This document shows positions 4,372-24,000 of a DNA stretch of 24,000 bases, piece by piece (the stretch's first letter is position 1; each line of letters begins with the position of its first letter). This DNA comes from an uncultured Bifidobacteriaceae bacterium (lineage in GTDB: Bacteria; Acidobacteriota; Vicinamibacteria; Vicinamibacterales; UBA2999), in contig CAYUAX010000027.1 of NCBI GenBank assembly GCA_964442845.1, positions 1 through 24,000 of the forward strand, written 5' to 3'. Both the position numbers and the translations under genes were made by a program. Below the pieces are notes generated by a model, which worked only from the letters and a program-made list of their open reading frames with translations, had not been told where the DNA came from and searched no databases.

Positions 4372-5277
4372 TCAGATTACCTTGGCGCCGCGCATCACGG
4401 CCTCGGCCTTGGGCACGATCTCGCGGGCAATCTCATAGGGATCGCGGGTCTGGAATCGCGGCGCGAAGAGCTCCACCGAGAGCGGCCCGGCGTAGGCGGC
4501 CTTGTCGGCGAGCACCCGCAGGATGGGCACGAGCGGCGCCACGCCGTCGCCAGGCATCACGCGCGTGGTCAGGTCGAGCATCTCGCGCGGCAGGTCCTCC
4601 ACGTCCTGGAAGTGCACGTGCTTCACGTCCCCAGGGCGGAGCTGGTCGAGATCCTCGAGCCGGTTGTGCCCCGACCAGAAGTGGTAGCAGTCGAACAGCA
4701 CGCCGGTGTTGGGGTGGCCGGCGGCGCGAACGATCCGCAGCAACGTCGGCAGCGTGGACGCAAACGTGGACTGCCGCACGAACTCGAACATCATCGTCAG
4801 CCGGAACTGCGCGGCGATGTCGCCGGCCGTGCGCATGTGCCCGGCGGCGGCCGCGTAGTCGTCGGCCGTCGGCTTCGCGGTGGTCGCGGTGGTCGCATAG
4901 GTGCGCGTGAGGCCGAGCGTGGCCAGCATCTCGCATCGCCGCTTCAGGCGATCGAAGGCGGCGGCGCGATCGGGATTCGGCTCGATCAGCCCGCCCACGC
5001 CGCACGACGCCGACACCGGCGTGAGCCCGTGGTCGGTGAGCACGCGCCTGGCCGCGGCCAGCGTCTCGGTCTTCAGGAACGCATCGAGCAGGTTGTTGGC
5101 GATCTCCACCTGGCGGACGCCGGCGCGGGCCCAGCCCTCGAGCGAGGCCTGGTACCCGGCGCCAGACGAGGTGTTGTGGTGAAGCGCGAGCGTCATCTTG
5201 CCGTCGGCAGCTGGCGTGGTGCCGGCGGCGGCGGCCAACGCCGCAGGGGCGAGCAGGATCTCGCGTCGTGAAGGCAT
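4372..5277 (-). CDS. Sugar phosphate isomerase/epimerase (xylose-isomerase-like TIM barrel), Tat signal
   Basis: Start chosen at MPSRREILLAPAALAAAAG (Tat-like SRREIL). The body (GYQASLEGWARAGVRQVE, GLIEPNPDRAAAFDRLKRRCEMLATLG, FDCYHFW, VHFQD, SVELF) fits the AP-endonuclease-2/xylose-isomerase-like TIM family. Confidence 0.8.
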   Translation of the reverse strand: MPSRREILLAPAALAAAAGTTPAADGKMTLALHHNTSSGAGYQASLEGWARAGVRQVEIANNLLDAFLKTETLAAARRVLTDHGLTPVSASCGVGGLIEPNPDRAAAFDRLKRRCEMLATLGLTRTYATTATTAKPTADDYAAAAGHMRTAGDIAAQFRLTMMFEFVRQSTFASTLPTLLRIVRAAGHPNTGVLFDCYHFWSGHNRLEDLDQLRPGDVKHVHFQDVEDLPREMLDLTTRVMPGDGVAPLVPILRVLADKAAYAGPLSVELFAPRFQTRDPYEIAREIVPKAEAVMRGAKVI

Positions 5278-5393
5278 CGCCGGTCCAGGATGGCCCATCT
5301 TACTCGCGCGCCGTCCCCGCGCTCGTCCCTGTCAATCGCGGCGCCACCGGGTCGGAGCCCGGCCAGCCGGGTGGGATGGGCGTATGTAGGGGC

Positions 5394-7805
5394 ATGCGTT
5401 TCACCGGGCTCATCGCCGACCTTCGCTTCGCCCTGCGGCTCGTCCGCGCCGACTGGCGCTTCTCGGCCACGCTGGTCGCCACGCTCGCCATCGGCATCGC
5501 CGCCAGCGGCGCGCTGTTCAACGTGGTGAACGCCACGCTGCTCCGGCCGCTGCCGATTCCCGACGAGGCCCGCGTGTATCGCCTGCAGGACTACACCGTG
5601 GGTCGCGACGGCGGCCAGGTGCGGCGCTCGAACCGCGTGCTCAACTTCCTCGACATCCGGACCGAGGCGCGCGCGTTCACGCAGATCGTCGGCATGCGCA
5701 GCCTGTCGTGGTCGCTCATCGACGGGTCGACACCGGTGCCGGTCGACGTGGGGCTGGTGTCGCCCGGATCGTTCGAGCTGCTCGGCGTGCGGGCGGCACT
5801 GGGGCGGCTGTTCACGGCCGAGGAGGAGCAGCGCGGGCTGGACGGCGGCGTCGTCGTGATCAGCCACGCGCTGTGGCAGCGCCAGTTCGGTGGGCGGCCC
5901 GATGTCGTGGGCCGCACCGTGCGGGTGGAGGACCACACGCCCACCGTGGTCGGCGTGCTGCCGGCAGGGTTCCGCTTCCCCTACGACGTCGAGGCGTGGA
6001 TGCCCGAGCGCGTCGACCCGCGCATCGAGGCGTCGCTGGCGGTGTTCGCGCGGCTGGCGCCCGAGGCGTCGCCGGCGCAGGCGCAGGCCGAACTCGACGC
6101 GATCGCCGTGCGGGCCGAGGCGGTGCGGCCGGTGGTCAATCGCGGCGTGCGCTTCGCGATGACGCCGATCCGCGAATCGCTGGTGGGCGCCAACGCGCGC
6201 ACGTCGCTGGCGCTGATGGGCGCGGCGGTGCTGTTGCTGGTGCTGGCCTCGGCCAATGTCGCCAACCTGCTGCTGGCGCGGGGGGTGCGGCTGGCCAAGG
6301 AGATCGCGGTGCGGGCGGCGTTGGGTGCCGAACGTGGCCGCCAGGTGCGGCAGATGCTGGTGGAGAGCGTGGTGTTCGCGGCGTTCGGCACGGCCGTGGG
6401 CCTGGCGGCGGCACATCCGCTGAGCCGGCTGCTCGTGGGGCTGGTGCCGAACACGTTGCGCGATCAACTCGGGCTCACCGACACCACGGTGGACATGCGC
6501 GCGGCGCTGTTCGCGGCGGCGATCACCGCGGGCGTGGGCGTGCTGGCGGGGCTGGTGCCGGCTTTGCGGCTGGCGCGCGCCGACGTGAGCGATACGCTGC
6601 GTCAGCATTCCCGGGGCGTGTCGAGCGGGCATCGCCTGATGCGGGGACTGGTCGTCGGCGAAGTGGCGCTGGCCGTGGTGCTGCTGGTGAGCGCCGGCCT
6701 GATGGTGGAGAACCTGCAGCGGCTGCTCGCCGCCAACCTCGGCCTGCGCGCCGACGCGCTCTATGCCGTGGCCCTGCCGCTGCCGCCGCGCTACGCCGAG
6801 GCCGACCAGCGCATCCAGGTGGTGCGGCAGCTGCACGAGGCCGCGCGGGCCATCCCCGGCGTGGAGCGGGCCGGGCTGTCGACGTGGAACCCGCTGGATC
6901 GCGGCAGCTTCGGCGCGTCGCTGGAGGCGGAGGATCATCGCCTCGAGCCGGGCCAGAGCGGCATCATCGTCAATCACCGGCAGGTGACGCCGGAGTGGTT
7001 CGAGACGGCCGGCGTGGCGCTGCTGCGCGGGCGCACGTTCACCGCCGCGGATGCCGCGGGCGCGCAGCCGGTGGCCATCGTCAGCCGGCGGCTGGCCGAG
7101 CGGCTGTGGCCGGGCGAAGACGCGCTGGGCAAGCGGCTGCGTCAGGCGCGTCCGGAGAATCCGTGGATCACGGTGGTCGGCGTGGTCGGCGACGTGCGCG
7201 ACTACGGCGAGTGGCCCGAGACGTGGTACGTGCCGTACGAGCAGCACGGCGGCACGCTGGCGGCCGGCACCGTGCACCTGATGGTGCGATCGCAGGTGGA
7301 TGCCGGGGCGGTCGTCGCGGCGCTGCGCGCGGCGAGTGCGTCGATCGATCCGCTGCTGCCGGTGCCGGATGCGGTGGTGATGACCACGATGTGGCAGGAG
7401 GCGCAGACGCCGCAGCGCATGGGCGCGCTGGTGGCGACGCTGTTCGGCGCGAGCGGGCTGCTGCTGGCCGCGCTCGGCACCTACGGCGTGCTGGCGTATC
7501 TGGTGTCGGCGCGAGCGCGGGAGTTCGGCATCCGCCAGGCGCTGGGGGCGCGTCCGCGGGACGTGGTGGCGATGGTGCTGCGCGACGGCGCCGCGCTGGC
7601 GGCCCTCGGGCTGGCGGTGGGCGGCGTGCTGAGCGTGGGCGCGGTGCAGGCGCTGCGCGGCGTGACCACCGAGGTGGCGGGCGTGCCGGCGGCGCTGCCG
7701 TGGCTGGTGGGCGCGGCGCTGGCGGGAGCTGCCCTCGTCGCGTCGTGGGTGCCGGCGCGCCGGGCCACACGCGTCCAGCCCGTCGAGGTCATGCGCAGCG
7801 AGTAA
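5394..7805 (+). CDS. Duplicated MacB/FtsX-type ABC transporter permease (ADOP-like, no adjacent ATPase)
   Basis: ATG at 5394 preceded by a purine-rich stretch (GTAGGGG). N-terminus MRFTGLIADLRFALRLVRADWRFSATLVATLAIGIAASGALFNVV. There are two FtsX-like 4-TM halves, each preceded by a periplasmic MacB-like domain. C-terminal ARRATRVQPVEVMRSE is typical for the family. Confidence 0.85.
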   Translation: MRFTGLIADLRFALRLVRADWRFSATLVATLAIGIAASGALFNVVNATLLRPLPIPDEARVYRLQDYTVGRDGGQVRRSNRVLNFLDIRTEARAFTQIVGMRSLSWSLIDGSTPVPVDVGLVSPGSFELLGVRAALGRLFTAEEEQRGLDGGVVVISHALWQRQFGGRPDVVGRTVRVEDHTPTVVGVLPAGFRFPYDVEAWMPERVDPRIEASLAVFARLAPEASPAQAQAELDAIAVRAEAVRPVVNRGVRFAMTPIRESLVGANARTSLALMGAAVLLLVLASANVANLLLARGVRLAKEIAVRAALGAERGRQVRQMLVESVVFAAFGTAVGLAAAHPLSRLLVGLVPNTLRDQLGLTDTTVDMRAALFAAAITAGVGVLAGLVPALRLARADVSDTLRQHSRGVSSGHRLMRGLVVGEVALAVVLLVSAGLMVENLQRLLAANLGLRADALYAVALPLPPRYAEADQRIQVVRQLHEAARAIPGVERAGLSTWNPLDRGSFGASLEAEDHRLEPGQSGIIVNHRQVTPEWFETAGVALLRGRTFTAADAAGAQPVAIVSRRLAERLWPGEDALGKRLRQARPENPWITVVGVVGDVRDYGEWPETWYVPYEQHGGTLAAGTVHLMVRSQVDAGAVVAALRAASASIDPLLPVPDAVVMTTMWQEAQTPQRMGALVATLFGASGLLLAALGTYGVLAYLVSARAREFGIRQALGARPRDVVAMVLRDGAALAALGLAVGGVLSVGAVQALRGVTTEVAGVPAALPWLVGAALAGAALVASWVPARRATRVQPVEVMRSE

Positions 7806-11909: not shown

Positions 11910-12010
11910 GGACCCCTCCGCGCGGGACGGGGGAGCACCCGGACCCGCGTCACGGACTATCGCTCAGGTAGCGTCGCCGGGCGTCGAGCGACCTCAATAC
12001 GGCGTGCAGC

Positions 12011-12056
12011 TCCGAGTCATCGACTCCGAGTCGATGACTCAGAGCCGATGACAAAT
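12011..12056. repeat. Intergenic modular palindromic element, copy B: units GAGTCATCGACTCC and GAGTCGATGACTCA, then right arm GAGCCGATGACA
   Basis: 14-bp periodic GAGTC-N3-GACTC units at 12014-12041. The right arm at 12042-12053 matches copy A's right arm 10/12. It sits between the stop of the ATP-grasp gene (12069) and the promoter region of the protease-like gene. Confidence 0.7.
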
Positions 12057-12068
12057 GGTGCAGATTCT

Positions 12069-13604
12069 TCAACTTGAGACCGGCATCGACGGCTGCGTGC
12101 GCCAGTACTCCAGGGTCAACCTCGCTACCCGTCGCAGGTCGAGCGGCGCGGCGCCGCGGGCGCGGTTGGCGGCGCCGATCTCGAACACCAGCTGCCACTG
12201 ACGCGACAGGGTCCGCCACGCCCGCCAGGCGCCGTACGCCGGGTCGTAGATGTTGGTCGATTCCGAGGTGACGCCGTTCAGCTCGACGATCGTCAGGTCC
12301 TCGCCGCGCCGGAACCCCTCGACGCGCCGGTACCGCACGTCGAACCGGCCGATGTAGAAGCCCGGCACCGCCCGGGCAATCTCGTCGATGCGCGCCGACA
12401 GCGCCGGCGTGACGAGCTCCGCGCCATCGAGGAACACGGCGCCCTGGCAGTGGTTGCCCGACGTCACCAGCGCCAGCCGTTCGCCGTCGCCGAGCACGCG
12501 CGCGCCGTCGTGACGCTCCAGGAACAACGGCACCTGCAGCCGGTAGCGCGGATGCTCCCAGAGCAGCGCCTCTACCGTGGCCACGCCGTCGCCCGTCAGC
12601 ACCGGGAAGCGCTTGTCGGTCACGCTGAAGATGTGGCCGCGCGTCTCGCCGGGCCGCCGGTAATAGAAGACGCCGGCCTCGAACGGCCCTGGATGCCACG
12701 GCTGCACGATCACCGGGCCGCGCTCGCGCGCCAGGTACGCGACTGCTTCGTCGCGCGAGGCGATGCGTCGCACGCCGACGCCTTTCTGGCCGACGTCGGG
12801 CTTGAGGATGAGCGGATAGGTCCAGCCGCCATCGGCCACGGCGGCATCGAACGCGCGCAGCCGGACGATCGGCTCGGCCGCCGCCACCAGCGCCGAGGGC
12901 GCCGTCCACCGCGACGGCAGCGCCTGCAGGATGGCGAACTTCGACTCGCCGACGAAGCCGCCGTCTTCGAATCCCGGATTGGCAGCGCCGATGGTCCCGA
13001 CGCCGCCGTGCCGTATCGCCAACCAGAGCAGCCACGGGCCAAGCGGGCCGTAGACCATCCACGACGGCCAGAACTCGGGCCGCAGCCAGCGATCGATGCG
13101 GGCGGTCGCCACCCGCCACACCCGACGCCCGCGGTCGGTGCGCGACGCACGGAGCAGCGCCAGCAGCAGCACCCCGCCGACCAGCAGTTCGGAGGTCCCC
13201 AGCACGATCAGCGGCGTCCACAGCGTGACCGCCAGCGCGGTCCAGGCGAAGAACGCCCGCGGCCGCGTGCCGAACACCCCGGCGGCCAGGTACAACGGCA
13301 GGCGCGTGCCGGGCAGAAAGCGGCTGGCGACGAGGGCGGTCGGTTCGTCCACGGCCAGCACCAGTGCGCGGCCCAGCACGCGCGGCATCCGCTGCACGCA
13401 CCAGCGGTGCAGGCGTTCGCTGCAGGCCAGCCCGCGTCCGGCCAGCCACAGCCCGACATCGCCCAGGTAGATGCCGGCGCCGCACGCGATCAGCGCCTGG
13501 CTCACCGTGAGCTCGCCCGAGCGGACGAGCCATCCGGCCCAGAGCGCCGCGGCGTCCTCCGACACGAAGGTGCCCAGCACGATCCAGAACGCCGTCGCGG
13601 TCAT
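12069..13604 (-). CDS. Fusion protein: N-terminal DedA/VTT (SNARE-associated) membrane domain plus C-terminal ATP-grasp carboxylate-amine ligase-like domain
   Basis: Start at ATG 13604, overlapping the upstream stop (ATGA). DedA motifs: FVSEDAAALWAGWL, GIYLGDVGLWLAGRG, ASRFLPGTRLPLYLAAGV. ATP-grasp-like body: YPLILKPDVGQKGVGVRRI, VIVQPW, FPVLTGDGVATVEALL, GNHCQGAVFLDG, GRFDVRY, IVELNGVTSESTNIYDP. Confidence 0.75.
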   Translation of the reverse strand: MTATAFWIVLGTFVSEDAAALWAGWLVRSGELTVSQALIACGAGIYLGDVGLWLAGRGLACSERLHRWCVQRMPRVLGRALVLAVDEPTALVASRFLPGTRLPLYLAAGVFGTRPRAFFAWTALAVTLWTPLIVLGTSELLVGGVLLLALLRASRTDRGRRVWRVATARIDRWLRPEFWPSWMVYGPLGPWLLWLAIRHGGVGTIGAANPGFEDGGFVGESKFAILQALPSRWTAPSALVAAAEPIVRLRAFDAAVADGGWTYPLILKPDVGQKGVGVRRIASRDEAVAYLARERGPVIVQPWHPGPFEAGVFYYRRPGETRGHIFSVTDKRFPVLTGDGVATVEALLWEHPRYRLQVPLFLERHDGARVLGDGERLALVTSGNHCQGAVFLDGAELVTPALSARIDEIARAVPGFYIGRFDVRYRRVEGFRRGEDLTIVELNGVTSESTNIYDPAYGAWRAWRTLSRQWQLVFEIGAANRARGAAPLDLRRVARLTLEYWRTQPSMPVSS

Positions 13605-14377
13605 GAGGCCGCCTTCGCCGCCCACCCCGAGTTGGCTTCGGCGCCCAAGGCCAGCGCGACCAGCGCCGCGCCGCGCCGCTCGATCGACAGCCACGCCGGC
13701 TGCCCGATCCCGTCGCGCATCGACTCGTAGCGCATGCGCACCCGGCTCGGCGTGACGTCCACGGTGGTGACGCTCTGCGTGGCCCAGTCGTGCCGCCGCA
13801 TGTGCACGCTGAGGTGCGGACGGTCGGGCCAGCGATGCCGATGGAACGCGTCCTGGCCGTCGAGGGGATCGACGGCGCCGGTCACCAGCGTGTCGAACAG
13901 GGCGCGGCGCGCCGGCTCGGCCTCGGTGTCACCCGGCGGCACCGCGGTGAAGCCCACCGGCCCACGCATCGGATAGGTGTCCATGCTCAGCCCGCCGGGC
14001 CGCACGCGCAGCTCGAGCGTCTTCGTGCCGTCGCTCGCCAGCAGCCGATGCGGCGGCCAGCCGCGCCAGGTGAGCGCCTGCGCGCGCGCCACCACCTGCC
14101 GCAGGTCGGCGCAGTCGAGCATCTCCAGGATGAGACGGCTGCGACTGGGCGCCGTGGACGACACCTCGCCGTGCCCGTTCAACAGCGCGAACACCAGACC
14201 CGCCGACGTGGCGGCGATCCACGTGCCGCCGCCCTGCGGGTCGATCGGCAGCAGCGCCAGCGCGCCGCCGGCGCGGGTGATGAGCGGCGGGTGCGCGGCG
14301 GGCCGGTCGTGGCGCTCGTCGCGGTTGGCCATCACCCGCAGGTGATCGCCCATCGGCAGGAACGTGACGGTGCACAT
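13601..14377 (-). CDS. NRDE-family protein (TANGO2-like, Ntn-hydrolase-like with N-terminal Cys)
   Basis: MCTVTFLPMGDHLRVMANRDERHDRP carries both the Met-Cys start and the eponymous NRDE motif. There is 1 nt between the upstream stop and this ATG. Confidence 0.8.
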   Translation of the reverse strand: MCTVTFLPMGDHLRVMANRDERHDRPAAHPPLITRAGGALALLPIDPQGGGTWIAATSAGLVFALLNGHGEVSSTAPSRSRLILEMLDCADLRQVVARAQALTWRGWPPHRLLASDGTKTLELRVRPGGLSMDTYPMRGPVGFTAVPPGDTEAEPARRALFDTLVTGAVDPLDGQDAFHRHRWPDRPHLSVHMRRHDWATQSVTTVDVTPSRVRMRYESMRDGIGQPAWLSIERRGAALVALALGAEANSGWAAKAAS

Positions 14378-14378
14378 G

Positions 14379-14747
14379 TCAGAACACCCGCAGGCCGTCG
14401 CGATGCAGCCAGGTGGTGGCGGCGGCGCAGAGGAACACGAGGCAAGCCAGCGCGAACAGCAGACCGCCGTCGCCCTGCACCTCGATGCCGAGTCGGGTCA
14501 GGTGGCTGCCAATGGCGCCGGCCATCAACCCCATGGCCAACACGCCGCCGAGGCCCGCGGTGCCCGTCCACAGCAGCAGGCCCGAGGCGACCAGTTCGGC
14601 TACGCCGCTGCCGATGCGGCCCCACGGCTCGGCGCCGAGCGTGGTGAAGATGTAGACCGACTCGGGCGCGCCGGTGAACTTGAAGAACAGCGTCTGCAGC
14701 AGGATGCCGGCGGCGACGAGCCGGACGATCCAGTCGAGGGCGGCCAT
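14379..14747 (-). CDS. DoxX-family integral membrane protein
   Basis: 122 aa with four hydrophobic segments. WIVRLVAAGILLQTLFFKFTG...GSGVAELVASGLLLW...GAIGSHL fits the DoxX pattern. Its ATG shares 1 nt with the upstream TGA (TGATG). The rest of the 315-aa track ORF is out-of-frame overlap with the YHS gene. Confidence 0.75.
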   Translation of the reverse strand: MAALDWIVRLVAAGILLQTLFFKFTGAPESVYIFTTLGAEPWGRIGSGVAELVASGLLLWTGTAGLGGVLAMGLMAGAIGSHLTRLGIEVQGDGGLLFALACLVFLCAAATTWLHRDGLRVF

Positions 14748-15268
14748 CACCGGCCGCCTTTCTTCGCGGCCGGCGCCGGCGACGCGCCCGCCGGCGCGGT
14801 GGTGGCCCGCGACGTGGCCGCGGACAGCAGCCCCGGCCAGTTGGCGTGCCCCTTGGCGATGTTGCCGTCGCGATCGAGCCGCCAGCGCGCCTGCACGAAC
14901 GACGAGTAGTTCACGTAGAGCTTGCCGTTGACCACGGCGAACGCCTCGGGGTCGATGTCGGCGGTGTAGTTGCGGCTCACCGCCCAGGCGCAGTAGCCGC
15001 CGAACTGCGGGGCGTACTGCTCGGGCGCCTTGGCGAAGCGGTCGCGGTTGGCGGCGCTGGCGAAGCGCCAGCGGGCGCCGCTCCAGGCGTGCTCGAACTG
15101 CGCCGTCCCGGCCACGGCGCGGCCCTCGGTGAAGTAGGCCACCGCGTCGTAGCCGTGCAGGGCCAGGCCCTGCGCGTCGACGTTCACCGGGGTGGCGGGC
15201 GGGCCCTGGGCGGCCAGACCGCCCACGAGCACGAATCCCATCAATGCTGTCAGTAGTCCTCGCCGCAT
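14747..15268 (-). CDS. Secreted YHS-domain protein (Cys form of the YHS-domain (seleno)protein family)
   Basis: AAGGAGAG RBS about 10 nt before ATG 15268. Signal [22 protein letters not shown]. Family pattern: [11 protein letters not shown]...G......[34 protein letters not shown]...[15 protein letters not shown]. Confidence 0.75.
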
Positions 15269-15296
15269 GGCCGTCACTCTCCTTCGCCGCCTCTGA

Positions 15297-15325
15297 TGTC
15301 CAGACGGTCGTCGGGTGTCTGGACA
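15297..15325. promoter_or_regulatory. 9-bp inverted repeat TGTCCAGAC-N11-GTCTGGACA in the divergent promoter region between the YHS operon and the GH63 gene; candidate operator
   Basis: Perfect reverse-complement arms at 15297-15305 and 15317-15325. They lie 29 nt upstream of the YHS ATG and 31 nt upstream of the GH63 ATG. Confidence 0.3.
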
Positions 15326-15355
15326 CGGAGCCCGGCCGCCGGCATCTGAGGCCGC

Positions 15356-18079
15356 ATGACGCCCGAACATCTGCGGCTCGAGGACGACGCCGCCCGCACC
15401 CGCCACTGGAAGCGTTGGGGCCCGTACGTGAGCGATCGCGCCTGGGGCACGGTGCGCGAGGACTACAGCCCGCACGGCACCGCGTGGGACTACTTCCCGC
15501 ACGACCACGCCCGCTCGCGCGCCTACCGCTGGAACGAGGACGGCCTGCTGGCGATCAGCGATCGCCACCAGCGCATCTGCTTCGGGCTGGCGCTGTGGAA
15601 CGGCCGCGATCCGATCCTGAAGGAGCGGCTGTTCGGCCTCACCGGCAGCGAAGGCAACCACGGCGAGGACGTCAAGGAGTACTACTTCTACCTGGACAGC
15701 ACGCCGACGCATTCCTACATGCGGGCGCTTTACAAGTACCCGCAGGCGGCGTTCCCGTATCGGCAGCTGGTCGACGAGAACGCCCGGCGCGGCCGCCAGG
15801 CCCCCGAGTTCGAGCTCGTCCACACCGGCGTCTTCGCCGAGTCACGCTACTTCGACGTCCAGGTCGAGTACGCCAAGGCCGACACCGACGACTTGCTGGT
15901 CCGCATCGCGGTCACCAATCGCGGCCCCGACGACGCGTCGCTGCGGCTGTTGCCCACGGTGTGGTTCCGCAACACGTGGGCCTGGGATCCCGGCGGCATC
16001 AAGCCGGTGCTGCGCGCCGACGGCCCTGGCGTCATCCGCCTGGACGAGCCGAGCTACGGCACCCGGTGGCTCTACTGCGACGGCGCCGACCGGCTGCTCT
16101 TCACCGAGAACGACACCAACACGGCGCGGCTGTTCGGCACGCCCAACGCCGGCTACGTCAAGGACGGCATCAACGACTGCGTGGTCGACGGGCGCACCGA
16201 GGCGGTGAATCCGGCGGGCGTCGGCACCAAGGCCGCCGCCGACTACGCCCTCGACGTGCCGGCCGGGGCCACGCGCGTGGTCCGCCTGCGGCTCACCGAT
16301 CGATCGCTCGAGCGGCTGCCGGCGGGCCCGTTCGGCCCGGCGTTCGACCAGACCATGGCGCGGCGGCTGCAGGAGGCCGACGACTTCTACGCCGAGGTGA
16401 TTCCCGCCACGCTCGGCGCCGACGAACGGCGCGTGATGCGCCAGGCGCTGGCCGGCGTGCTGTGGTCCAAGCAGTACTACCACTACGTGGTGCGCTACTG
16501 GCTGCAGGGCGACCCGGCGCAGCCGCCGCCGCCCGACGCCCGCCAGCAGGGCCGCAACCGCGAGTGGCCGCACCTCTACAACGCCGACGTCATCTCGATG
16601 CCCGACAAGTGGGAGTACCCCTGGTACGCGGCCTGGGACCTGGCCTTCCACTGCCTGGCGCTGGCACTGGTCGATGCGCAGTTCGCCAAGGACCAGCTCG
16701 TGCTGATGCTGCGCGAGTGGTACATGCACCCCAACGGCCAGCTCCCCGCCTACGAGTGGGCGTTCGGCGACGTCAACCCGCCGGTGCACGCCTGGGCGGC
16801 GTGGCGGGTCTACAAGATCGACAAGAAGCGCACCGGCACCGGCGATCGCGTGTTCCTCGAACGCGTCTTCCAGAAGCTGCTGCTCAACTTCACGTGGTGG
16901 GTCAACCGGAAGGACGCCGAGGGTCGCAACGTCTTCCAGGGCGGCTTCCTGGGTCTGGACAACATCGGCGTCTTCGACCGCAGCGCCGCGCTGCCCACCG
17001 GCGGACACCTCGAGCAGAGCGACGGCACCAGCTGGATGGCGATGTACTGCCTGAACATGCTGGCCATCGCCATGGAACTGGCCGCCGACAACCCGGCCTA
17101 CGAAGACACGGCGAGCAAGTTCTGGGAGCACTTCCTCTACATCGCCCATGCGATGGGCACGCACGGCGAGGAGGGCGGGGATCTCTGGGACGAGGCCGAC
17201 GGCTTCTTCTATGACGTGCTGCACCGGCCCGACGGCGACAAACAGCCGCTCAAAGTGCGCTCGATGGTCGGCCTGATTCCGCTCTTCGCGGTGGAGACGC
17301 TCGAACCGGAGCTGCTCGACAAGCTGCCCGGCTTCGCCCGCCGCCTCGAGTGGTTCATCGACCATCGGCCCGACCTGACGCGCCACACCGCCTGCATGCG
17401 CAGCCCCGGCCGCGGCGAGCGGCGCCTGCTCTCCGTCGTCGATCGCGATCGGCTGCGCCGTGTGCTGCAGGTGATGCTCGACGAGGAGGAGTTCCTGTCG
17501 CCGTTCGGCGTCCGCGCGCTCTCGCGCAAGCATCGCGACGAGCCGTATTCGCTGATCGTCGACGGGCACGAGCATCGCGTGAGCTACGAGCCGGCCGAGT
17601 CGTCGACCGGGCTGTTCGGCGGCAACTCCAACTGGCGCGGGCCGATCTGGTTCCCGGTGAACTTCCTGTTGGTGGAGTCGCTGCAGAAGTTCCACCACTA
17701 CCTGGGCGACGACTTCACCGTCGAGTGCCCCACCGGCTCGGGCCGGATGCTGACGCTGTGGCAGGTGGCCGAGGAGATCGCCGGCCGCCTCACCGCGATC
17801 TTCCTGCGCGATGCCGACGGACGACGGCCGGTGTTCGGCGAGGAGCGGCTCTTCCAGGGCGATCCGCACTGGCGCGACCTGGTGCCGTTCCACGAGTACT
17901 TCCACGGCGACACCGGCGCCGGCGTGGGTGCCAGCCATCAAACCGGCTGGACGGCGCTGGTCGCCAAACTGCTGCAGCAGCGCGGCCAGCACGTGGCGCG
18001 CGCGGCCGGCGACGACGCGGCTATGCGTGGCGCCCCTCGGGAGGCCGCGGCCGCGGCGGCCGCGTTCAAACGCGCATGA
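15356..18079 (+). CDS. GH63-like (MGH1-like) glycoside hydrolase / glucosidase
   Basis: 907 aa with clean GC3. N-terminal [42 protein letters not shown] and a C-terminal (alpha/alpha)6-type region with [30 protein letters not shown] and GTSWMAMY are typical of this family. Confidence 0.85.
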
Positions 18080-18095
18080 TAAACTCGCGCGCTCG

Positions 18096-18731
18096 ATGGC
18101 TGTCGCGCCCGATTCCGAAGAGGCCGCCGAAGCGGCGCTGCTCGCCGGGCTGCGCGCCGGCTCGGATGCGGCGTACGAATCGCTGGTGCGGGCCAACTCG
18201 TCCCGCCTGCTGACCGTGGCCCGGCGCATCCTCGGCTCCGAAGACGACGCCCGCGACGCCCTGCAGGAGGCGTTCATCTCGGCCTTCCGCGCGCTGCCGC
18301 GCTTCGAGGGCCAGGCCCGGCTCTCCACGTGGCTGCACCGCATCGTCGTCAACACCGCGTTGATGAAGCTGCGCAGCCGCAAGCGCCGCCCCGAAGAGCC
18401 GATCGAGTCGATGCTGCCGGGCTACAAGGACGACGGACACCAGCACATCGAGCCCGTGGAGTGGTCGGACGGCGCCGACGTGGCCCTGGAGCGGGCCGAG
18501 ACCCGCGCCTACGTCCGTGCACAAATCGACAGACTGCCGGAGAACTACCGTACCGTCCTGCTGCTGCGCGACATCGAAGAGATGAGCACCCCGGAAGCGG
18601 CCGCCGCGCTGGGCATCACCGAGAACGCCGTGAAGATTCGACTCCACCGCGCCCGTCAGGCCCTGCGCGCGCTGCTCGACCAGCGGCTGCGGGGCTCGTC
18701 CGCCGCGGACGCGGAAAGGACGCCGTCGTGA
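18096..18731 (+). CDS. ECF (sigma-70 group IV) RNA polymerase sigma factor, paralog 1
   Basis: Sigma-2 region DARDALQEAFISAFRALPRFEGQARLSTWLHRIVVNTALMKLRSRKRR. Sigma-4 region LPENYRTVLLLRDIEEMSTPEAAAALGITENAVKIRLHRARQALR. The ATG is 16 nt after the GH63 stop. Confidence 0.9.
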   Translation: MAVAPDSEEAAEAALLAGLRAGSDAAYESLVRANSSRLLTVARRILGSEDDARDALQEAFISAFRALPRFEGQARLSTWLHRIVVNTALMKLRSRKRRPEEPIESMLPGYKDDGHQHIEPVEWSDGADVALERAETRAYVRAQIDRLPENYRTVLLLRDIEEMSTPEAAAALGITENAVKIRLHRARQALRALLDQRLRGSSAADAERTPS

Positions 18732-18976
18732 CCTGTCGTGAGTTCGCCGAATTCATCATGGAGTATCTCGACGGCGAGCTGGCCGGCGACGTGGCCGCGC
18801 CGTTCGAACGTCACATCTCGCGCTGTCCGGCCTGCGACCGCTACCTGCGGCAGTACAAGGCGACGGTCGCCGCGGGCCATGCGGCGTTCCACAAATGCGG
18901 CGACGGCGAGCTCCCCGACGACGTGCCCGAGGAGCTGATTACCGCGATTCTCGAGAGCCGCCGGCGCGTGCAGTGA
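18728..18976 (+). CDS. Small soluble zinc-binding anti-sigma factor (ZAS, RsrA-like, zf-HC2)
   Basis: GTG start overlaps the sigma stop (GTGA). VTCREFAEFIMEYLDGEL...FERHISRCPACDRYL gives the C-x26-HxxxCxxC ZAS signature. 82 aa with no TM segment. Confidence 0.75.
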   Translation: MTCREFAEFIMEYLDGELAGDVAAPFERHISRCPACDRYLRQYKATVAAGHAAFHKCGDGELPDDVPEELITAILESRRRVQ

Positions 18977-21725: not shown

Positions 21726-22493
21726 CTATTGCTCCTGGTAGAACCAGGTCAGGCCGCCATCCACGACGTAGGTCGACCCGGTCACGTAGGCGGCTTCGTC
21801 CGACGCCAGGAACACGGCCACGCCGGTGACGTCGTCGGTCGAGCCGAGCCGGGCGAGCGGGATCTGCTCGGTGAGCGAGCGCAGCTTGACCGGGTCGTTG
21901 AGCAGCGCCGTGTTGATGGGCGTGGCGATGGCCCCCGGCGCGACGGAGTTGACGGTGATGCCGAGCGGACCGAGCTCCACCGCCAGGTTGCGCGTCAGCA
22001 TCTTCAGCCCGCCCTTCGACGCGCAATAGGCGGCGAAGTTCGGAAACGGCAGCTCCTCGTGCACCGAGCTGATGTTGACGATGCGCCCCGGCCGGCCGCC
22101 GTCGCGCAGGTGCCGCACCATCGCCTGCGTGGCGAAGAACGGGCCCTTGAGGTTGACGTCGAGCACCTTGTCGTAGTCGGCCTCGGCCACGTCCCAGAAC
22201 GGCGCGTGCGTCTCGACACCGGCGTTGTTCACCAGGATGTCGAGGCGCCCCATCGCGGCGACGGCTTCGGCGATCAGGCGCTGCACCTCGGCCACCCGCG
22301 ATACGTCGGCCTGGATGGCCACCGCACGCACGCCCGAGGCCCGCGCCGCCTGCGCCACCTCCTCGGCCATCGTCGGGCCGGAGCGGTAGTTCACCACCAC
22401 GTCGGCGCCCTCGCGCGCGAACCGCTCGACGATCGCCCGGCCGATGCCCTGCGCGCCGCCGGTCACCAACGCCACTTTGCCCTGCAGTCTCAC
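21726..22493 (-). CDS. Short-chain dehydrogenase/reductase (classical SDR, glucose 1-dehydrogenase-like)
   Basis: TGGAQGIGRA Rossmann motif, NNAG, S...YCASKGG (YxxxK), PGAIATP. Confidence 0.9.
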   Translation of the reverse strand: MRLQGKVALVTGGAQGIGRAIVERFAREGADVVVNYRSGPTMAEEVAQAARASGVRAVAIQADVSRVAEVQRLIAEAVAAMGRLDILVNNAGVETHAPFWDVAEADYDKVLDVNLKGPFFATQAMVRHLRDGGRPGRIVNISSVHEELPFPNFAAYCASKGGLKMLTRNLAVELGPLGITVNSVAPGAIATPINTALLNDPVKLRSLTEQIPLARLGSTDDVTGVAVFLASDEAAYVTGSTYVVDGGLTWFYQEQ

Positions 22494-23241: not shown

Positions 23242-23324
23242 GGTGGCTCTGATGAAGGGACGACGGCGGCGTTTCGTCGATCGCAACGCCGAAACAGGCG
23301 CGGCGTGACGGCATCGAAGTCGTC

Positions 23325-23603
23325 GTGCGCGAGGACCTGGCCCGCATTGTCGTCTGGATTGCCGGCACTTATCTGACGCTCGGCCTGCTCTTCGCGGTGC
23401 CGTTCGTGCTGCGCGGCGTGCAACGGATCGATCCGGTGGCGCGCGAGGGCACCTGGGGCTTCCGCGCGATCATCGTGCCGGGCGTGACGCTGTGCTGGCC
23501 GTTGCTGGCACGACGCTGGGCCGTCGGCGCGGTCCACGCGCCCACCGAACACACCGCCCATCGCCGGCGCGCCGCCGCTCGCGGCCAGGAGGCGTCCGCA
23601 TGA
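23325..23603 (+). CDS. Small hypothetical membrane protein (2 predicted TM segments)
   Basis: GTG start, good GC3. Hydrophobic segments IVVWIAGTYLTLGLLFAVPFVL and AIIVPGVTLCWPLLA. Its stop overlaps the next ATG (ATGA). Confidence 0.45.
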   Translation: MREDLARIVVWIAGTYLTLGLLFAVPFVLRGVQRIDPVAREGTWGFRAIIVPGVTLCWPLLARRWAVGAVHAPTEHTAHRRRAAARGQEASA

Positions 23604-23740
23604 TCCGACCGCTGCGCCGCGCGCATCGCGCCGCCATGCTGCTGCTGGCTGTGGCGCTGCCGGCGCTGCTGCTTGCCGCCGTGCTGCTCCGCGCGGCGCC
23701 GCCGGCGCAACGTCCGTGGCCACTCGCGGTGATGCGATGA
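23600..23740 (+). CDS. Very small hypothetical single-TM protein (46 aa)
   Basis: AGGAGG (23587-23592) 7 nt before ATG 23600. MIRPLRRAHRAAMLLLAVALPALLLAAVLL. ATGA overlaps at both ends couple it to the flanking ORFs. Confidence 0.35.
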   Translation: MIRPLRRAHRAAMLLLAVALPALLLAAVLLRAAPPAQRPWPLAVMR

Positions 23741-24000
23741 GCGTCGCCTATCGCGCTGTCGGCTGGAATCCGCAGAAGCGCCGCTACGACGCCATCGTCC
23801 TGGCCGGCGTGCTCGGGCTGCTCGTCCTGCTGGTCGGCGGCGGCGCCCTCGTCCAGCCCGAGGCGACGATCGAGACCCTGCTGATCCGCGGGCTGGCGGT
23901 GACGGCGATCGTGCTGCTGCACGTCGTCCTGTCGATCGGCCCGCTGTGCCGGCTCGATCGCCGGCTGCTGCCGCTGCTCTACAACCGGCGCCATCTCGGC
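23737..24000 (+). CDS. Ferric-reductase-like / YedZ-like transmembrane domain protein, 5' partial (runs off window)
   Basis: Not in the ORF track because there is no stop inside the window. My translation is MSVAYRAVGWNPQKRRYDAIVLAGVLGLLVLLVGGGAL...LLIRGLAVTAIVLLHVVLSIGPLCRLDRRLLPLLYNRRHLG. The TM-His and NRRHLG pattern resembles ferric-reductase-type membrane domains. Confidence 0.45.
   Translation, partial: MSVAYRAVGWNPQKRRYDAIVLAGVLGLLVLLVGGGALVQPEATIETLLIRGLAVTAIVLLHVVLSIGPLCRLDRRLLPLLYNRRHLG

Follow-up and report, generated by a model that had tools for sequence, protein, structure and literature searches.

Ornithine lipids and related aminolipids arise by the OlsF, OlsBA and GlsBA pathways, in which tailoring genes beside the synthase gene are the rule and the ATP-requiring formation of an amide on the head-group carboxylate is an orphan activity (PMC12971839). 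A review of March 2026 counts three routes of aminolipid synthesis and five modifications; Ser-Gly and Orn-Ser-Gly head groups are known, with a glycine lipid as their precursor, and taurine is transferred to the carboxylate of ornithine lipid in an ATP-dependent reaction whose gene is unidentified (PMC12971839). Here, we analyzed a 24,000-nucleotide stretch of contig CAYUAX010000027.1 (positions 1 to 24,000, forward strand; hereafter the window), which has a GC content of about 71% and whose nearest relatives are metagenome-assembled genomes of Vicinamibacterales (Acidobacteriota). On its minus strand, a four-gene operon encodes a YHS-domain protein, a small DoxX-like membrane protein, a protein of the NRDE/TANGO2 family, and a fusion of a DedA (VTT) membrane domain with an ATP-grasp ligase. 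The NRDE protein and the DedA::ATP-grasp ligase form a conserved functional pair, which is one polypeptide in some organisms, and this unit is genetically tied to OlsF-like and OlsA-like acyltransferases, a DinB_2 protein, and an alpha/beta hydrolase. We tentatively read the window operon, with a probability of roughly 0.4, as the local, reduced form of a widespread gene cluster for the tailoring of amino-acid lipids of the OlsF type.

As in the OlsF, OlsBA and GlsBA pathways, a full-length OlsF-type and an OlsA-type acyltransferase are co-encoded with the ligase cluster. However, none of the known tailoring enzymes of aminolipids, among them the hydroxylases OlsC, OlsD, and OlsE and the methylase OlsG, is an ATP-grasp, DedA, TANGO2, or DinB protein; the ATP-dependent taurine transferase of cerilipin is an orphan. 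A similar logic is found in MprF together with AhyD, VirJ, or PesT, where a cytoplasmic head-group domain is fused to a lipid-translocating domain and a product hydrolase is encoded alongside. Operon-encoded hydrolases balance the aminoacyl-phosphatidylglycerol synthases, and the proteobacterial hydrolase of MprF-type operons is periplasmic (PMC6103681). The system described here differs from MprF in that an ATP-grasp acyl-phosphate would take the place of aminoacyl-tRNA, a DedA/VTT domain that of the MprF flippase, and the hydrolases would be the Cys-Ntn NRDE protein and the alpha/beta hydrolase. In the glutathionylspermidine synthetase/amidase of E. coli (GspSA), a Cys-nucleophile amidase and an ATP-grasp synthetase on one polypeptide make and break the same amide, and oxidation of the amidase Cys tips the balance toward synthesis. 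For the accessory genes, the closest likeness is to MsrPQ and to the mycobacterial DoxX-SseA-SodA complex, membrane systems that supply the envelope with reducing power or handle thiols. An MsrQ-like heme-b domain, a DoxX-family protein, and a periplasmic Cys/Sec (selenocysteine) or CxxC protein occur in the present clusters as well, whereas MsrP, SseA, and SodA partners are missing, the MsrQ-like domain forms a fusion with a Rieske domain, and the partner of DoxX is YHS. In the literature searched, no paper dealt with this cluster; an earlier note on this DNA, made from the sequence alone, likewise knew of no described pathway with this gene set. An earlier survey of amidoligases may list the ATP-grasp family. 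The same search gave no paper in which DedA is connected to ATP-grasp, nor one that links TANGO2 to OlsF, ornithine lipids, or aminolipids.

The NRDE protein and its membrane-anchored ligase

The survey used one genome per species and yielded 259 loci with relatives of the DedA::ATP-grasp fusion protein. Neighboring genes were counted in the best 80 of the 259 loci, with a flank of 7 kb each. This sample is species-level and covers at least eight phyla, with Acidobacteriota, Planctomycetota, Desulfobacterota, Calditrichota, KSB1, Spirochaetota (Leptospiraceae), Acidimicrobiia, Rhodothermales, and others represented. Neighbor families were obtained by a conservation-weighted choice of open reading frames (ORFs), followed by Louvain clustering and the construction of hidden Markov models (HMMs). 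A homolog search with the fusion protein returned 2989 sequences. The ATP-grasp half was queried exhaustively with HMMER against 1.84 billion representatives (50% identity clusters) and found 2716 relatives, with 1123 clusters at E ≤ 1e-30.

The fusion gene (12069..13604, minus strand) encodes 511 amino acids and is the anchor of the conserved cluster. Its N-terminal DedA/VTT membrane domain spans residues 1–155 approximately (13140..13604). The window copy scores 33.7 bits against the Pfam VTT_dom profile (PF09335), where the cut-off is 33.9; orthologs reach 50–59 bits (58.8 in L064), and nearly all homologs of the fusion protein have a precomputed PF09335 assignment. The acidic pair E16 and D17, D49, and the loop R95-x-x-P98-G99-x-R101 are invariant in our alignment of the family (A1). 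From the motifs, and not from a structural alignment, we take these residues to correspond to E39, D51, R130, and R136 of the re-entrant loops of YqjA. The following segment (residues ~156–235, 12900..13139) is a family-specific juxtamembrane region with the invariant columns E177-F-W-P180, A208-N-P210, and G215-G-x-V-G-E-S-K222 (EFWPSW ... AANPGxxDGGFVGESK). It replaces the usual N-terminal subdomain of ATP-grasp enzymes, is predicted to be helical in the model, and is retained in relatives that consist of ATP-grasp only or are fused to TANGO2.

The ATP-grasp catalytic core occupies residues 236–505 approximately (12090..12899). A profile of the C-terminal half searched against the PDB matched the G domain of cyanophycin synthetase (E = 2.6e-4), with the motifs LKPD (K268), RFD (D422), and VELNG (E441 and N443) aligned. 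These four residues, which represent the ATP-binding Lys and the Mg site, are invariant in the family, and they are intact in the window protein. An AlphaFold2 model of the fusion protein (predicted local distance difference test score 82.9) gave 229 Foldseek matches in the PDB at E ≤ 1e-3. The best 50 were all ATP-grasp ligases, headed by cyanophycin synthetase (7wae, E = 1e-7), with GshF (3ln7) and D-Ala-D-Ala ligase (Ddl) structures also at the top. Like the cyanophycin synthetase G domain, the C-terminal domain of GshF, and Ddl, the family has the KPxxGxxGxG loop, the Mg site D...ExN, and the segment GDGxxT(L/I)xxL(I/L); however, the identity is 14–20%, the N-terminal subdomain is exchanged for the juxtamembrane helices, and a DedA domain is fused. 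In the reactions of these nearest fold relatives, an N-acylated amino acid or peptide is extended at its free alpha-carboxylate. MprF and GspSA gave no profile or fold match among the matches listed, and GspS was outside the best 50 fold matches. A curated ATP-grasp family was not found in Pfam at E ≤ 0.01, and NCBIfam models gave 12–17 bits only. The ATP-grasp half is an undescribed subfamily. The assignment of the gene as DedA::ATP-grasp, which had been made from the sequence, is supported by the VTT domain, for which the window copy is borderline, and by the structural similarity to cyanophycin synthetase, GshF, and Ddl.

The NRDE/TANGO2-family protein (13601..14377, minus strand; 258 amino acids) is predicted to be cytoplasmic and is a putative Cys-Ntn amide hydrolase or transferase. 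It matches the Pfam TANGO2 profile (PF05742) with 32.2 bits (cut-off 22.6), over the N-terminal third only. In an alignment of 13 diverse cluster members (A2), M1-C2-T3 and N18-R19-D20-E21 are invariant, and the pattern of Cys at the second position followed by NRDE is present in 48 of 53 extracted homologs. A profile of this subfamily searched against the PDB matched human TANGO2 only (9bwa and 8sv7, E = 2.8e-4). Matches to RelB obtained with the single NRDE sequence as the query were spurious and were superseded by the profile search. The membership in the NRDE/TANGO2 family claimed before is therefore sound, resting on the Pfam match, the invariant Cys2 and NRDE motif, and the exclusive profile match. 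By its structure, TANGO2 is a hydrolase of the Cys-Ntn type whose pocket is large and suited to lipids; no substrate has been assigned to it, and it binds acyl-CoA via the NRDE motif (PMC13044924, PMC11867700). The crystal structure of April 2026 led to the proposal of "fatty-acid derivatives larger than 500 Da" as substrates and indicated that heme binding is non-specific (PMC13044924). The only bacterial study concerns the homolog HtpA of Shewanella, for which heme traffic to cytochrome c maturation was reported (PMC10470608). Human TANGO2 and HtpA have in common with the window protein the PF05742 domain, Cys2, the NRDE motif, and the GGTW and SRG segments. The window NRDE protein differs from them as a member of a divergent bacterial subfamily (32 bits) that is coupled to the ligase in an operon or fused to it; no counterpart of this coupling or fusion was found in the eukaryotic or Shewanella literature searched.

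Natural fusions join the two proteins. Relatives of the ATP-grasp half occur as ATP-grasp alone, DedA::ATP-grasp, alpha/beta hydrolase::DedA::ATP-grasp, alpha/beta hydrolase::ATP-grasp, ATP-grasp::alpha/beta hydrolase, and in two types of fusion with TANGO2. One type, TANGO2::alpha/beta hydrolase::DedA::ATP-grasp, is represented by P0364 and P0392 (~1120–1130 amino acids), from two independent sources. The other, TANGO2::ATP-grasp, is represented by P0487 (722 amino acids), whose TANGO2 domain scores 223 bits and is much nearer to the canonical, eukaryote-type profile than the window NRDE protein (32 bits). Together, the three proteins stem from three independent data sources. P0392 (L091, 8001–11393) lies in a canonical context behind the small membrane protein c13, an MsrQ-like::Rieske protein, the protein c9, a TSA-like protein, and DinB_2, and the contig of P0487 (L090) carries no other cluster genes. 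In P0487, P0364, and P0392, the amidase is N-terminal and the ATP-grasp domain C-terminal, the order also seen in GspSA. The amidase fold differs, however, as it is Ntn (TANGO2) and not CHAP, the present proteins are membrane-embedded, and action of both domains on one bond would be assumed by analogy. The suggestion of the earlier note that a ligase is paired with a Cys-nucleophile amidohydrolase is strongly supported by these fusions and by the adjacency of the two genes in 49 of the 80 loci.

The ligase ORF begins about 350 codons earlier in approximately 21–31 of the 80 loci, where it encodes a protein of 820–940 amino acids. Besides a transmembrane helix, the N-terminal extension contains an alpha/beta-hydrolase domain whose elbow is of the GxSxG type (HxVGFSMGGGV), and it matches Abhydrolase_1 with 105 bits. 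Examples are L064 (5840–8581), L039, L041, L050, L055, L058, L061, L065, L069, L072, and L076, among others; in some planctomycetes and Leptospira, the hydrolase is a separate neighboring gene. A gap of ~1 kb between the NRDE and ligase genes in about 24 loci had been considered as masked sequence or a missed gene; this was rejected because the gap is the alpha/beta-hydrolase domain of the ligase ORF. A split version of the system was observed in Leptospira alexanderi (L073, 6349–10529), with a DinB-like protein, an ATP-grasp protein without DedA (365 amino acids, juxtamembrane segment present), an adenylate cyclase, and a separate alpha/beta hydrolase.

Conserved neighbors of the ligase

The most frequent neighbor of the ligase is a DinB_2 protein, which was found in 55 of the 80 loci, always on the same strand and within 3 kb. 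The NRDE gene follows with 49 loci under the same two constraints, and in most of them it lies directly upstream of the ligase gene. An OlsF-like protein of ~600 amino acids with Acyltransf_2 and Acetyltransf_5 domains is likewise encoded in 49 loci, within 3 kb in 42 of them. DoxX is present in 38 loci, YHS in 20, and an OlsA-like, PlsC-type acyltransferase in 19. Two of the OlsF-like neighbors matched the NCBIfam model NF052615 (bifunctional ornithine lipid synthase OlsF) from end to end, with 402 and 376 bits, and the best NCBIfam matches of the PlsC neighbor were models of OlsA, the lyso-ornithine-lipid acyltransferase. The OlsF-like proteins share the bifunctional architecture of OlsF, in which the O-acyltransferase is N-terminal and the N-acyltransferase C-terminal.

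These genes form contiguous, co-directional chains. The order DinB_2, NRDE, ligase was found in 13 loci, and the longer order YHS, DoxX, DinB_2, NRDE, ligase in 10. A chain of OlsF, PlsC, DinB_2, and ligase, with or without NRDE before the ligase, is present in at least 10 loci; in L010, the genes of OlsF, DoxX, DinB_2, NRDE, and the ligase follow each other with gaps of at most 25 bp. An apparent DoxX::DinB fusion in L010 was rejected, as the two are separate overlapping genes in different frames. In 23 loci, the chain includes OlsF or PlsC; in a further 9, an OlsF gene in convergent orientation lies no more than 400 bp away. The gene order was corroborated by independent gene calls and Pfam assignments in L083, L084, and L091. 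The window-type order YHS, DoxX, NRDE, ligase, without DinB_2, was seen in 3 of the 80 loci, which are the three nearest relatives of the window only. The earlier note had treated the four genes as the unit; this does not hold, given the synteny and the separability of YHS. Its list of partners also missed the most faithful ones (DinB_2, OlsF-like, OlsA-like, alpha/beta hydrolase, and MsrQ-like::Rieske), which lie outside the operon.

Redox proteins recur in varying forms. A trio of c13, a Ferric_reduct::Rieske protein, and c9 adjoins the ligase cluster in about 15 of the 80 loci and in L091. The orthologs of the middle gene have Pfam Ferric_reduct and Rieske domains, and the N-terminus is MsrQ-like by NCBIfam. 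No Pfam or NCBIfam family was found for c9 (~270 amino acids) or c13 (~75 amino acids); c9 has a conserved C...C...C segment. TSA-like, NDH2-like, and MsrQ-like::Rieske proteins replace or join YHS and DoxX elsewhere. For example, in L083 (7353–8726, on a 437-kb metagenomic contig), a type-II NADH dehydrogenase-like flavoprotein (Pyr_redox_2 and NDH2_C) is inserted between DoxX_2 and DinB_2. The redox neighbors differ by lineage; therefore, the redox theme is persistent, while its components are interchangeable. No peptidoglycan, lipopolysaccharide (LPS), or polyprenyl genes recur in the 80 neighborhoods. Of the 80 loci, 13 encode the VOC protein c10. In Desulfobacterota, LepA-like, FAH-like, methyltransferase-like, and NDK-like genes recur; these were recognized by reading the sequences, with no profile search, and were judged to be lineage-specific housekeeping genes.

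The YHS protein of the window (14747..15268, minus strand; 173 amino acids), probably a secreted accessory redox component of the periplasm, has the Cys form, GGYCAW. It matches NCBIfam NF041384 (YHS domain-containing (seleno)protein) with 154.1 bits (cut-off 70) over profile positions 2–112 of 113, and Pfam YHS with 33.5 bits (cut-off 30.3). A metagenome scan for GGNGGNTAYTGAGCNTGGGC gave 120 matches; in 11 of these, all from the YHS family, TGA stands in frame at the GGY-[C]-AW codon (L144, L170, L131, L195, L201, L126, L183, L109, L210, L160, and L211). About 55 further codons are conserved after this TGA. The proposed alignment of the GGYCAW Cys with a selenocysteine is borne out by these 11 members. 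All 20 YHS copies within the ligase loci have Cys. In L170, which has the TGA type, a ligase homolog is located 1.9 kb away on the opposite strand. In planctomycetes, YHS is the C-terminal part of fusion proteins that begin with a signal peptide and a CPxC TSA/thioredoxin-like domain (L009, ~4400–5400; L023, 4191–5138; L030, 4089–5030), and these proteins match weakly to the NCBIfam model "SelL-related redox protein". A redox role of YHS is thus supported by Sec at the Cys codon and by the fusion to a CxxC TSA-like domain. YHS can also stand alone: copies 70% identical to that of the window lie between luciferase-like monooxygenase and Abhydrolase_10 genes in L087, L088, and L089, with no DoxX, NRDE, or ligase gene nearby, and the Sec-containing copies are mostly without the cluster partners too.

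The small membrane protein of 122 amino acids (14379..14747, minus strand) probably belongs to the DoxX/MauE superfamily. Its assignment as DoxX stands in part: the orthologs from other loci pass the threshold of DoxX_2 (31–32 bits, cut-off 26.3) or DoxX (24.5–25.5 bits, cut-off 23.6), but the window copy itself gives only a weak match to MauE (17.9 bits, cut-off 27) and none to DoxX.

The operon in the window and its lineage

The four minus-strand ORFs and the junctions TGATG, TGA-c-ATG, and ATGA agree at base level with the earlier description. The stop codon of YHS and the start codon of DoxX share one base (ggccggTGATGgcc, at 14747), the stop of DoxX is separated by a 1-base spacer from the start of NRDE (ttcTGAcATGtgc, at 14379/14377), and the stop of NRDE and the start of the fusion gene overlap by 4 nt (ctcATGAcc, 13604–13601). 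The choice of start codons agrees with the homologs: relatives of the fusion protein likewise have 511 amino acids, and NRDE begins with Met-Cys. A GGAG Shine-Dalgarno sequence precedes the YHS gene, whose product has a signal-peptide-like N-terminus. Overlaps of 1 nt and 4 nt are shared by the relatives L081 and L084. Other overlaps in the window, judged by ORF coordinates only, involve a pair of short-chain dehydrogenase/reductase (SDR) genes at ~22490–22493 and a sigma/anti-sigma pair at ~18728–18731. The overlapping junctions appear ordinary in a window with 71% GC. They indicate an operon, and nothing exceptional, nor the stoichiometric co-expression that had been proposed, follows from them.

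A perfect hairpin of 17–19 bp (GAGTCATCGACTC/GAGTCGATGACTC; 12007..12047, minus strand; RNA folding energy −36.4 kcal/mol, z = −2.97) lies after the last stop codon. It is a probable transcription terminator that lacks a U tract, or possibly a palindrome bound by a protein or regulator. On the other side, an 87-bp divergent intergenic region (15269..15355), defined by ORF coordinates, is the presumed promoter region. The hairpin and the divergent region upstream of YHS thus bound a transcription unit of four genes. Consensus scans revealed no sigma-70 promoter and no U-tailed terminator. The divergent unit on the plus strand (15356–18976) encodes a GH63/MGH1-like glycoside hydrolase (907 amino acids), an extracytoplasmic function (ECF) sigma factor (~18100–18731), and a zf-HC2 anti-sigma factor (~18728–18976). 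This divergent layout is kept in L081 and L084, and a zf-HC2 gene is immediately 5′ of DoxX in L083; therefore, control of the operon by the ECF sigma factor is possible. At the far end of the window, c13 (23325..23603, plus strand; HMM 96.7 bits at 23319–23552) is the first gene of the redox module c13, MsrQ-like::Rieske, c9. The second gene, whose MsrQ-like domain resembles ferric reductases, starts at 23710 on the plus strand and is cut by the window end at 24000 (HMM 132 bits).

The relative L084, which is 54% identical, has the flanks of the window (GH63, ECF sigma, anti-sigma, SDRs, c13, and Rieske). In L084, DoxX and NRDE still flank a DinB gene, and a convergent OlsF-like gene is found 37 bp past the ligase. 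In the closest relative genome, an OlsF-like gene (P0166) is on the contig of the operon, ~29 kb away, and its neighbors are the SGL, HbpS-like, and glyoxalase genes that accompany OlsF in L084. The window operon is therefore a derived form, which arose by a clean deletion of DinB_2 and by a rearrangement that separated the synthase. A block of SGL (gluconolactonase-like), HbpS-like/cupin, a 131-amino-acid protein, and tandem glyoxalase/VOC genes was observed to move with the OlsF-like gene (L084, 11426–15414; L085, 1–3954). Directly downstream of the operon in the window is a gene of a gingipain-like peptidase C25 (11909–10368, minus strand) with weak similarity to PorU, the sortase of type IX secretion. 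In the lineage of the window, it occupies the slot that is held by the OlsF-like gene in related lineages.

Proposed aminolipid tailoring and competing explanations

The preferred scheme is as follows. The OlsF-like and OlsA-like enzymes would make an acyloxyacyl aminolipid, on whose head group a carboxylate, and often an amine as well, stays free. The DedA domain and the juxtamembrane helices would hold the ATP-grasp domain at the cytoplasmic face of the membrane, where it could activate a carboxylate as an acyl-phosphate and form a new head-group amide, most likely by joining the alpha-carboxylate of the lipid to an amine or amino acid. Taurine-ornithine, Ser-Gly, and Orn-Ser-Gly lipids contain bonds of this type. 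The free alpha-carboxylate of N-acyl amino acids resembles the C-termini of the peptides on which the closest structural relatives act. DedA may present the aminolipid, flip it to the outer leaflet, or both. The NRDE protein, as a Cys-Ntn amidase acting through Cys2, would hydrolyze or transfer the amide of the same lipid, in reversal, editing, or homeostasis, for which the pairs of aminoacyl-phosphatidylglycerol synthase and hydrolase and GspSA set a precedent. The alpha/beta hydrolase, where present, would face the periplasm and act on the flipped product, and YHS (Cys or Sec) with DoxX would be a variable thiol-redox accessory module of the periplasm and membrane. A GspSA-type oxidation switch at the amidase Cys would fit the redox neighbors of the ligase cluster. 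Among the three functions that had been guessed for the operon, lipid modification is the one favored by the synteny, while the analogy to ergothioneine biosynthesis found no specific support.

Several observations weigh against aminolipid tailoring. OlsF-like, OlsA-like, and DinB_2 genes were not found in an HMM scan of the 24-kb window, and in 31 of the 80 loci, the 7-kb flanks are free of OlsF-like genes. Where such neighbors occur, they score below the equivalog cut-off (402 versus 620 bits); therefore, the amino acid may not be ornithine. To our knowledge, no ATP-grasp enzyme with a lipid substrate has been established. Purified human TANGO2 reportedly has no acyltransferase activity (PMC11867700). 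What is proposed here on the substrate, on the new bond, and on the direction in which NRDE works is all inferred. Moreover, the persistent redox neighbors (YHS-Cys/Sec, DoxX, TSA-like, NDH2-like, and MsrQ-like::Rieske) and DinB_2 are not accounted for by a simple extension of the head group. They leave room for a variant in which the ATP-grasp domain would add a thiol moiety, such as cysteine or a glutathione-like peptide, to the amine or carboxylate of the OlsF-made aminolipid and thus produce a membrane-bound thiol. DinB_2 would use this lipid-anchored redox head group as a thiol-transferase cofactor, DedA would flip it, periplasmic YHS, TSA-like, DoxX, and MsrQ-like::Rieske proteins would recycle it, and the TANGO2-type amidase would remove it, being switched off when Cys2 is oxidized, as in GspSA. 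We regard this variant as a long shot; if it were true, N-acyl amino-acid lipid amides would be the first physiological substrate class for TANGO2.

The hydrolase fusions would also allow a different use of the same parts, in which the ATP-grasp domain would load an amino acid or amine on an aminolipid or on polyprenyl phosphate, DedA would flip this carrier, the alpha/beta hydrolase would transfer the cargo to LPS, peptidoglycan, or protein in a Dlt-like manner, and NRDE would edit carriers with the wrong load. In P0364, one arginine-preceded hydrophobic helix parts the hydrolase from the cytoplasmic NRDE domain; hence, the hydrolase most likely faces the periplasm and the ATP-grasp domain the cytoplasm, a distribution that speaks for such a route. 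Between roughly a quarter and a third of the ligases carry the hydrolase as a fused domain, it also occurs as a separate neighbor, and the hallmark residues of DedA are conserved. The DedA proteins UptA and PopT recycle undecaprenyl phosphate (C55-P), some DedA proteins flip undecaprenyl phosphate, and the ATP-grasp enzyme Aslfm modifies peptidoglycan precursors. However, the lack of recurring envelope-polymer and polyprenyl genes noted above stands against decoration by a lipid carrier, the lipid genes that do recur are aminolipid acyltransferases, and the window protein and many others have no hydrolase domain. We consider it unlikely, and slightly more so a Lands-cycle-like repair of oxidized lipids. 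For repair, the redox modules would reduce lipid hydroperoxides or damaged head groups, the alpha/beta hydrolase and NRDE would strip O- and N-acyl chains, and OlsF, OlsA, and the ATP-grasp enzyme would rebuild the lipid. The recurrence of redox proteins beside the core (DoxX, YHS, and MsrQ-like::Rieske, at the frequencies given above, as well as TSA-like and NDH2-like), the co-encoded hydrolases and acyltransferases, and the adjacent ECF sigma/anti-sigma genes are consistent with repair, as is the increase of lipid peroxidation on loss of TANGO2 in human cells, in the summary given by PMC13044924. On the other hand, an ATP-grasp amide ligase has no evident place where deacylation and reacylation already have acyltransferases, and the redox modules are the least conserved parts of the cluster, with YHS also occurring alone.

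The fold matches to GshF and cyanophycin synthetase would also suit a soluble pathway for a low-molecular-weight thiol or another small molecule, of the ergothioneine or glutathione type, with a GshB/GshF-like ATP-grasp enzyme, an EgtC-like NRDE protein, DinB_2 as a thiol transferase, and DedA exporting the product to YHS and DoxX. EgtB contains a DinB_2 domain, and enzymes with the DinB fold frequently act as thiol S-transferases; no neighbor is more faithful to the ligase than DinB_2, and thiol-redox neighbors recur. Nevertheless, genes for handling cysteine, histidine, or glutamate, a sulfoxide synthase, and a methyltransferase do not recur, and the strongest neighbors outside the core are lipid acyltransferases. 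The ATP-grasp protein has membrane-proximal helices in place of the soluble N-terminal domain, and DinB_2 is absent from the window operon; such a soluble pathway is therefore improbable in our judgment, more so than lipid repair. Finally, the operon might be a mosaic, in which NRDE would traffic heme, like HtpA, for heme and redox membrane proteins, and the ligase and YHS-DoxX would be unrelated passengers. The report on Shewanella HtpA (PMC10470608), the recurrence of MsrQ-like heme-b proteins nearby, and the separability of YHS agree with this. However, NRDE is fused to ATP-grasp in three independent proteins and adjoins the ligase in 49 loci, some of which lack any heme protein, and the heme binding of TANGO2 was non-specific in the crystal structure (PMC13044924). 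Because the NRDE::ATP-grasp fusions argue strongly against a mosaic, the role of NRDE as a heme chaperone was down-weighted, and we hold this explanation to be very improbable, the least so favored of all.

What the earlier note took for a four-gene system is the portion found in one lineage of a cluster that is larger, widespread, and undescribed. TANGO2 is the gene of a severe human metabolic disease, and the cluster provides a genetically tractable hypothesis for its substrate class. The membrane-anchored ATP-grasp enzyme of the OlsF clusters is a candidate for the enzyme type that forms the taurine-ornithine, Ser-Gly, and Orn-Ser-Gly head groups. The lipid substrates of DedA proteins are only now being assigned, and the DedA-ligase fusion offers a natural handle on DedA ligands. 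With more than 1,000 clusters at 50% identity in phyla of soil, sediment, and aquatic habitats and in Leptospira, a new lipid class or mechanism of lipid homeostasis, if true, would therefore be environmentally widespread.

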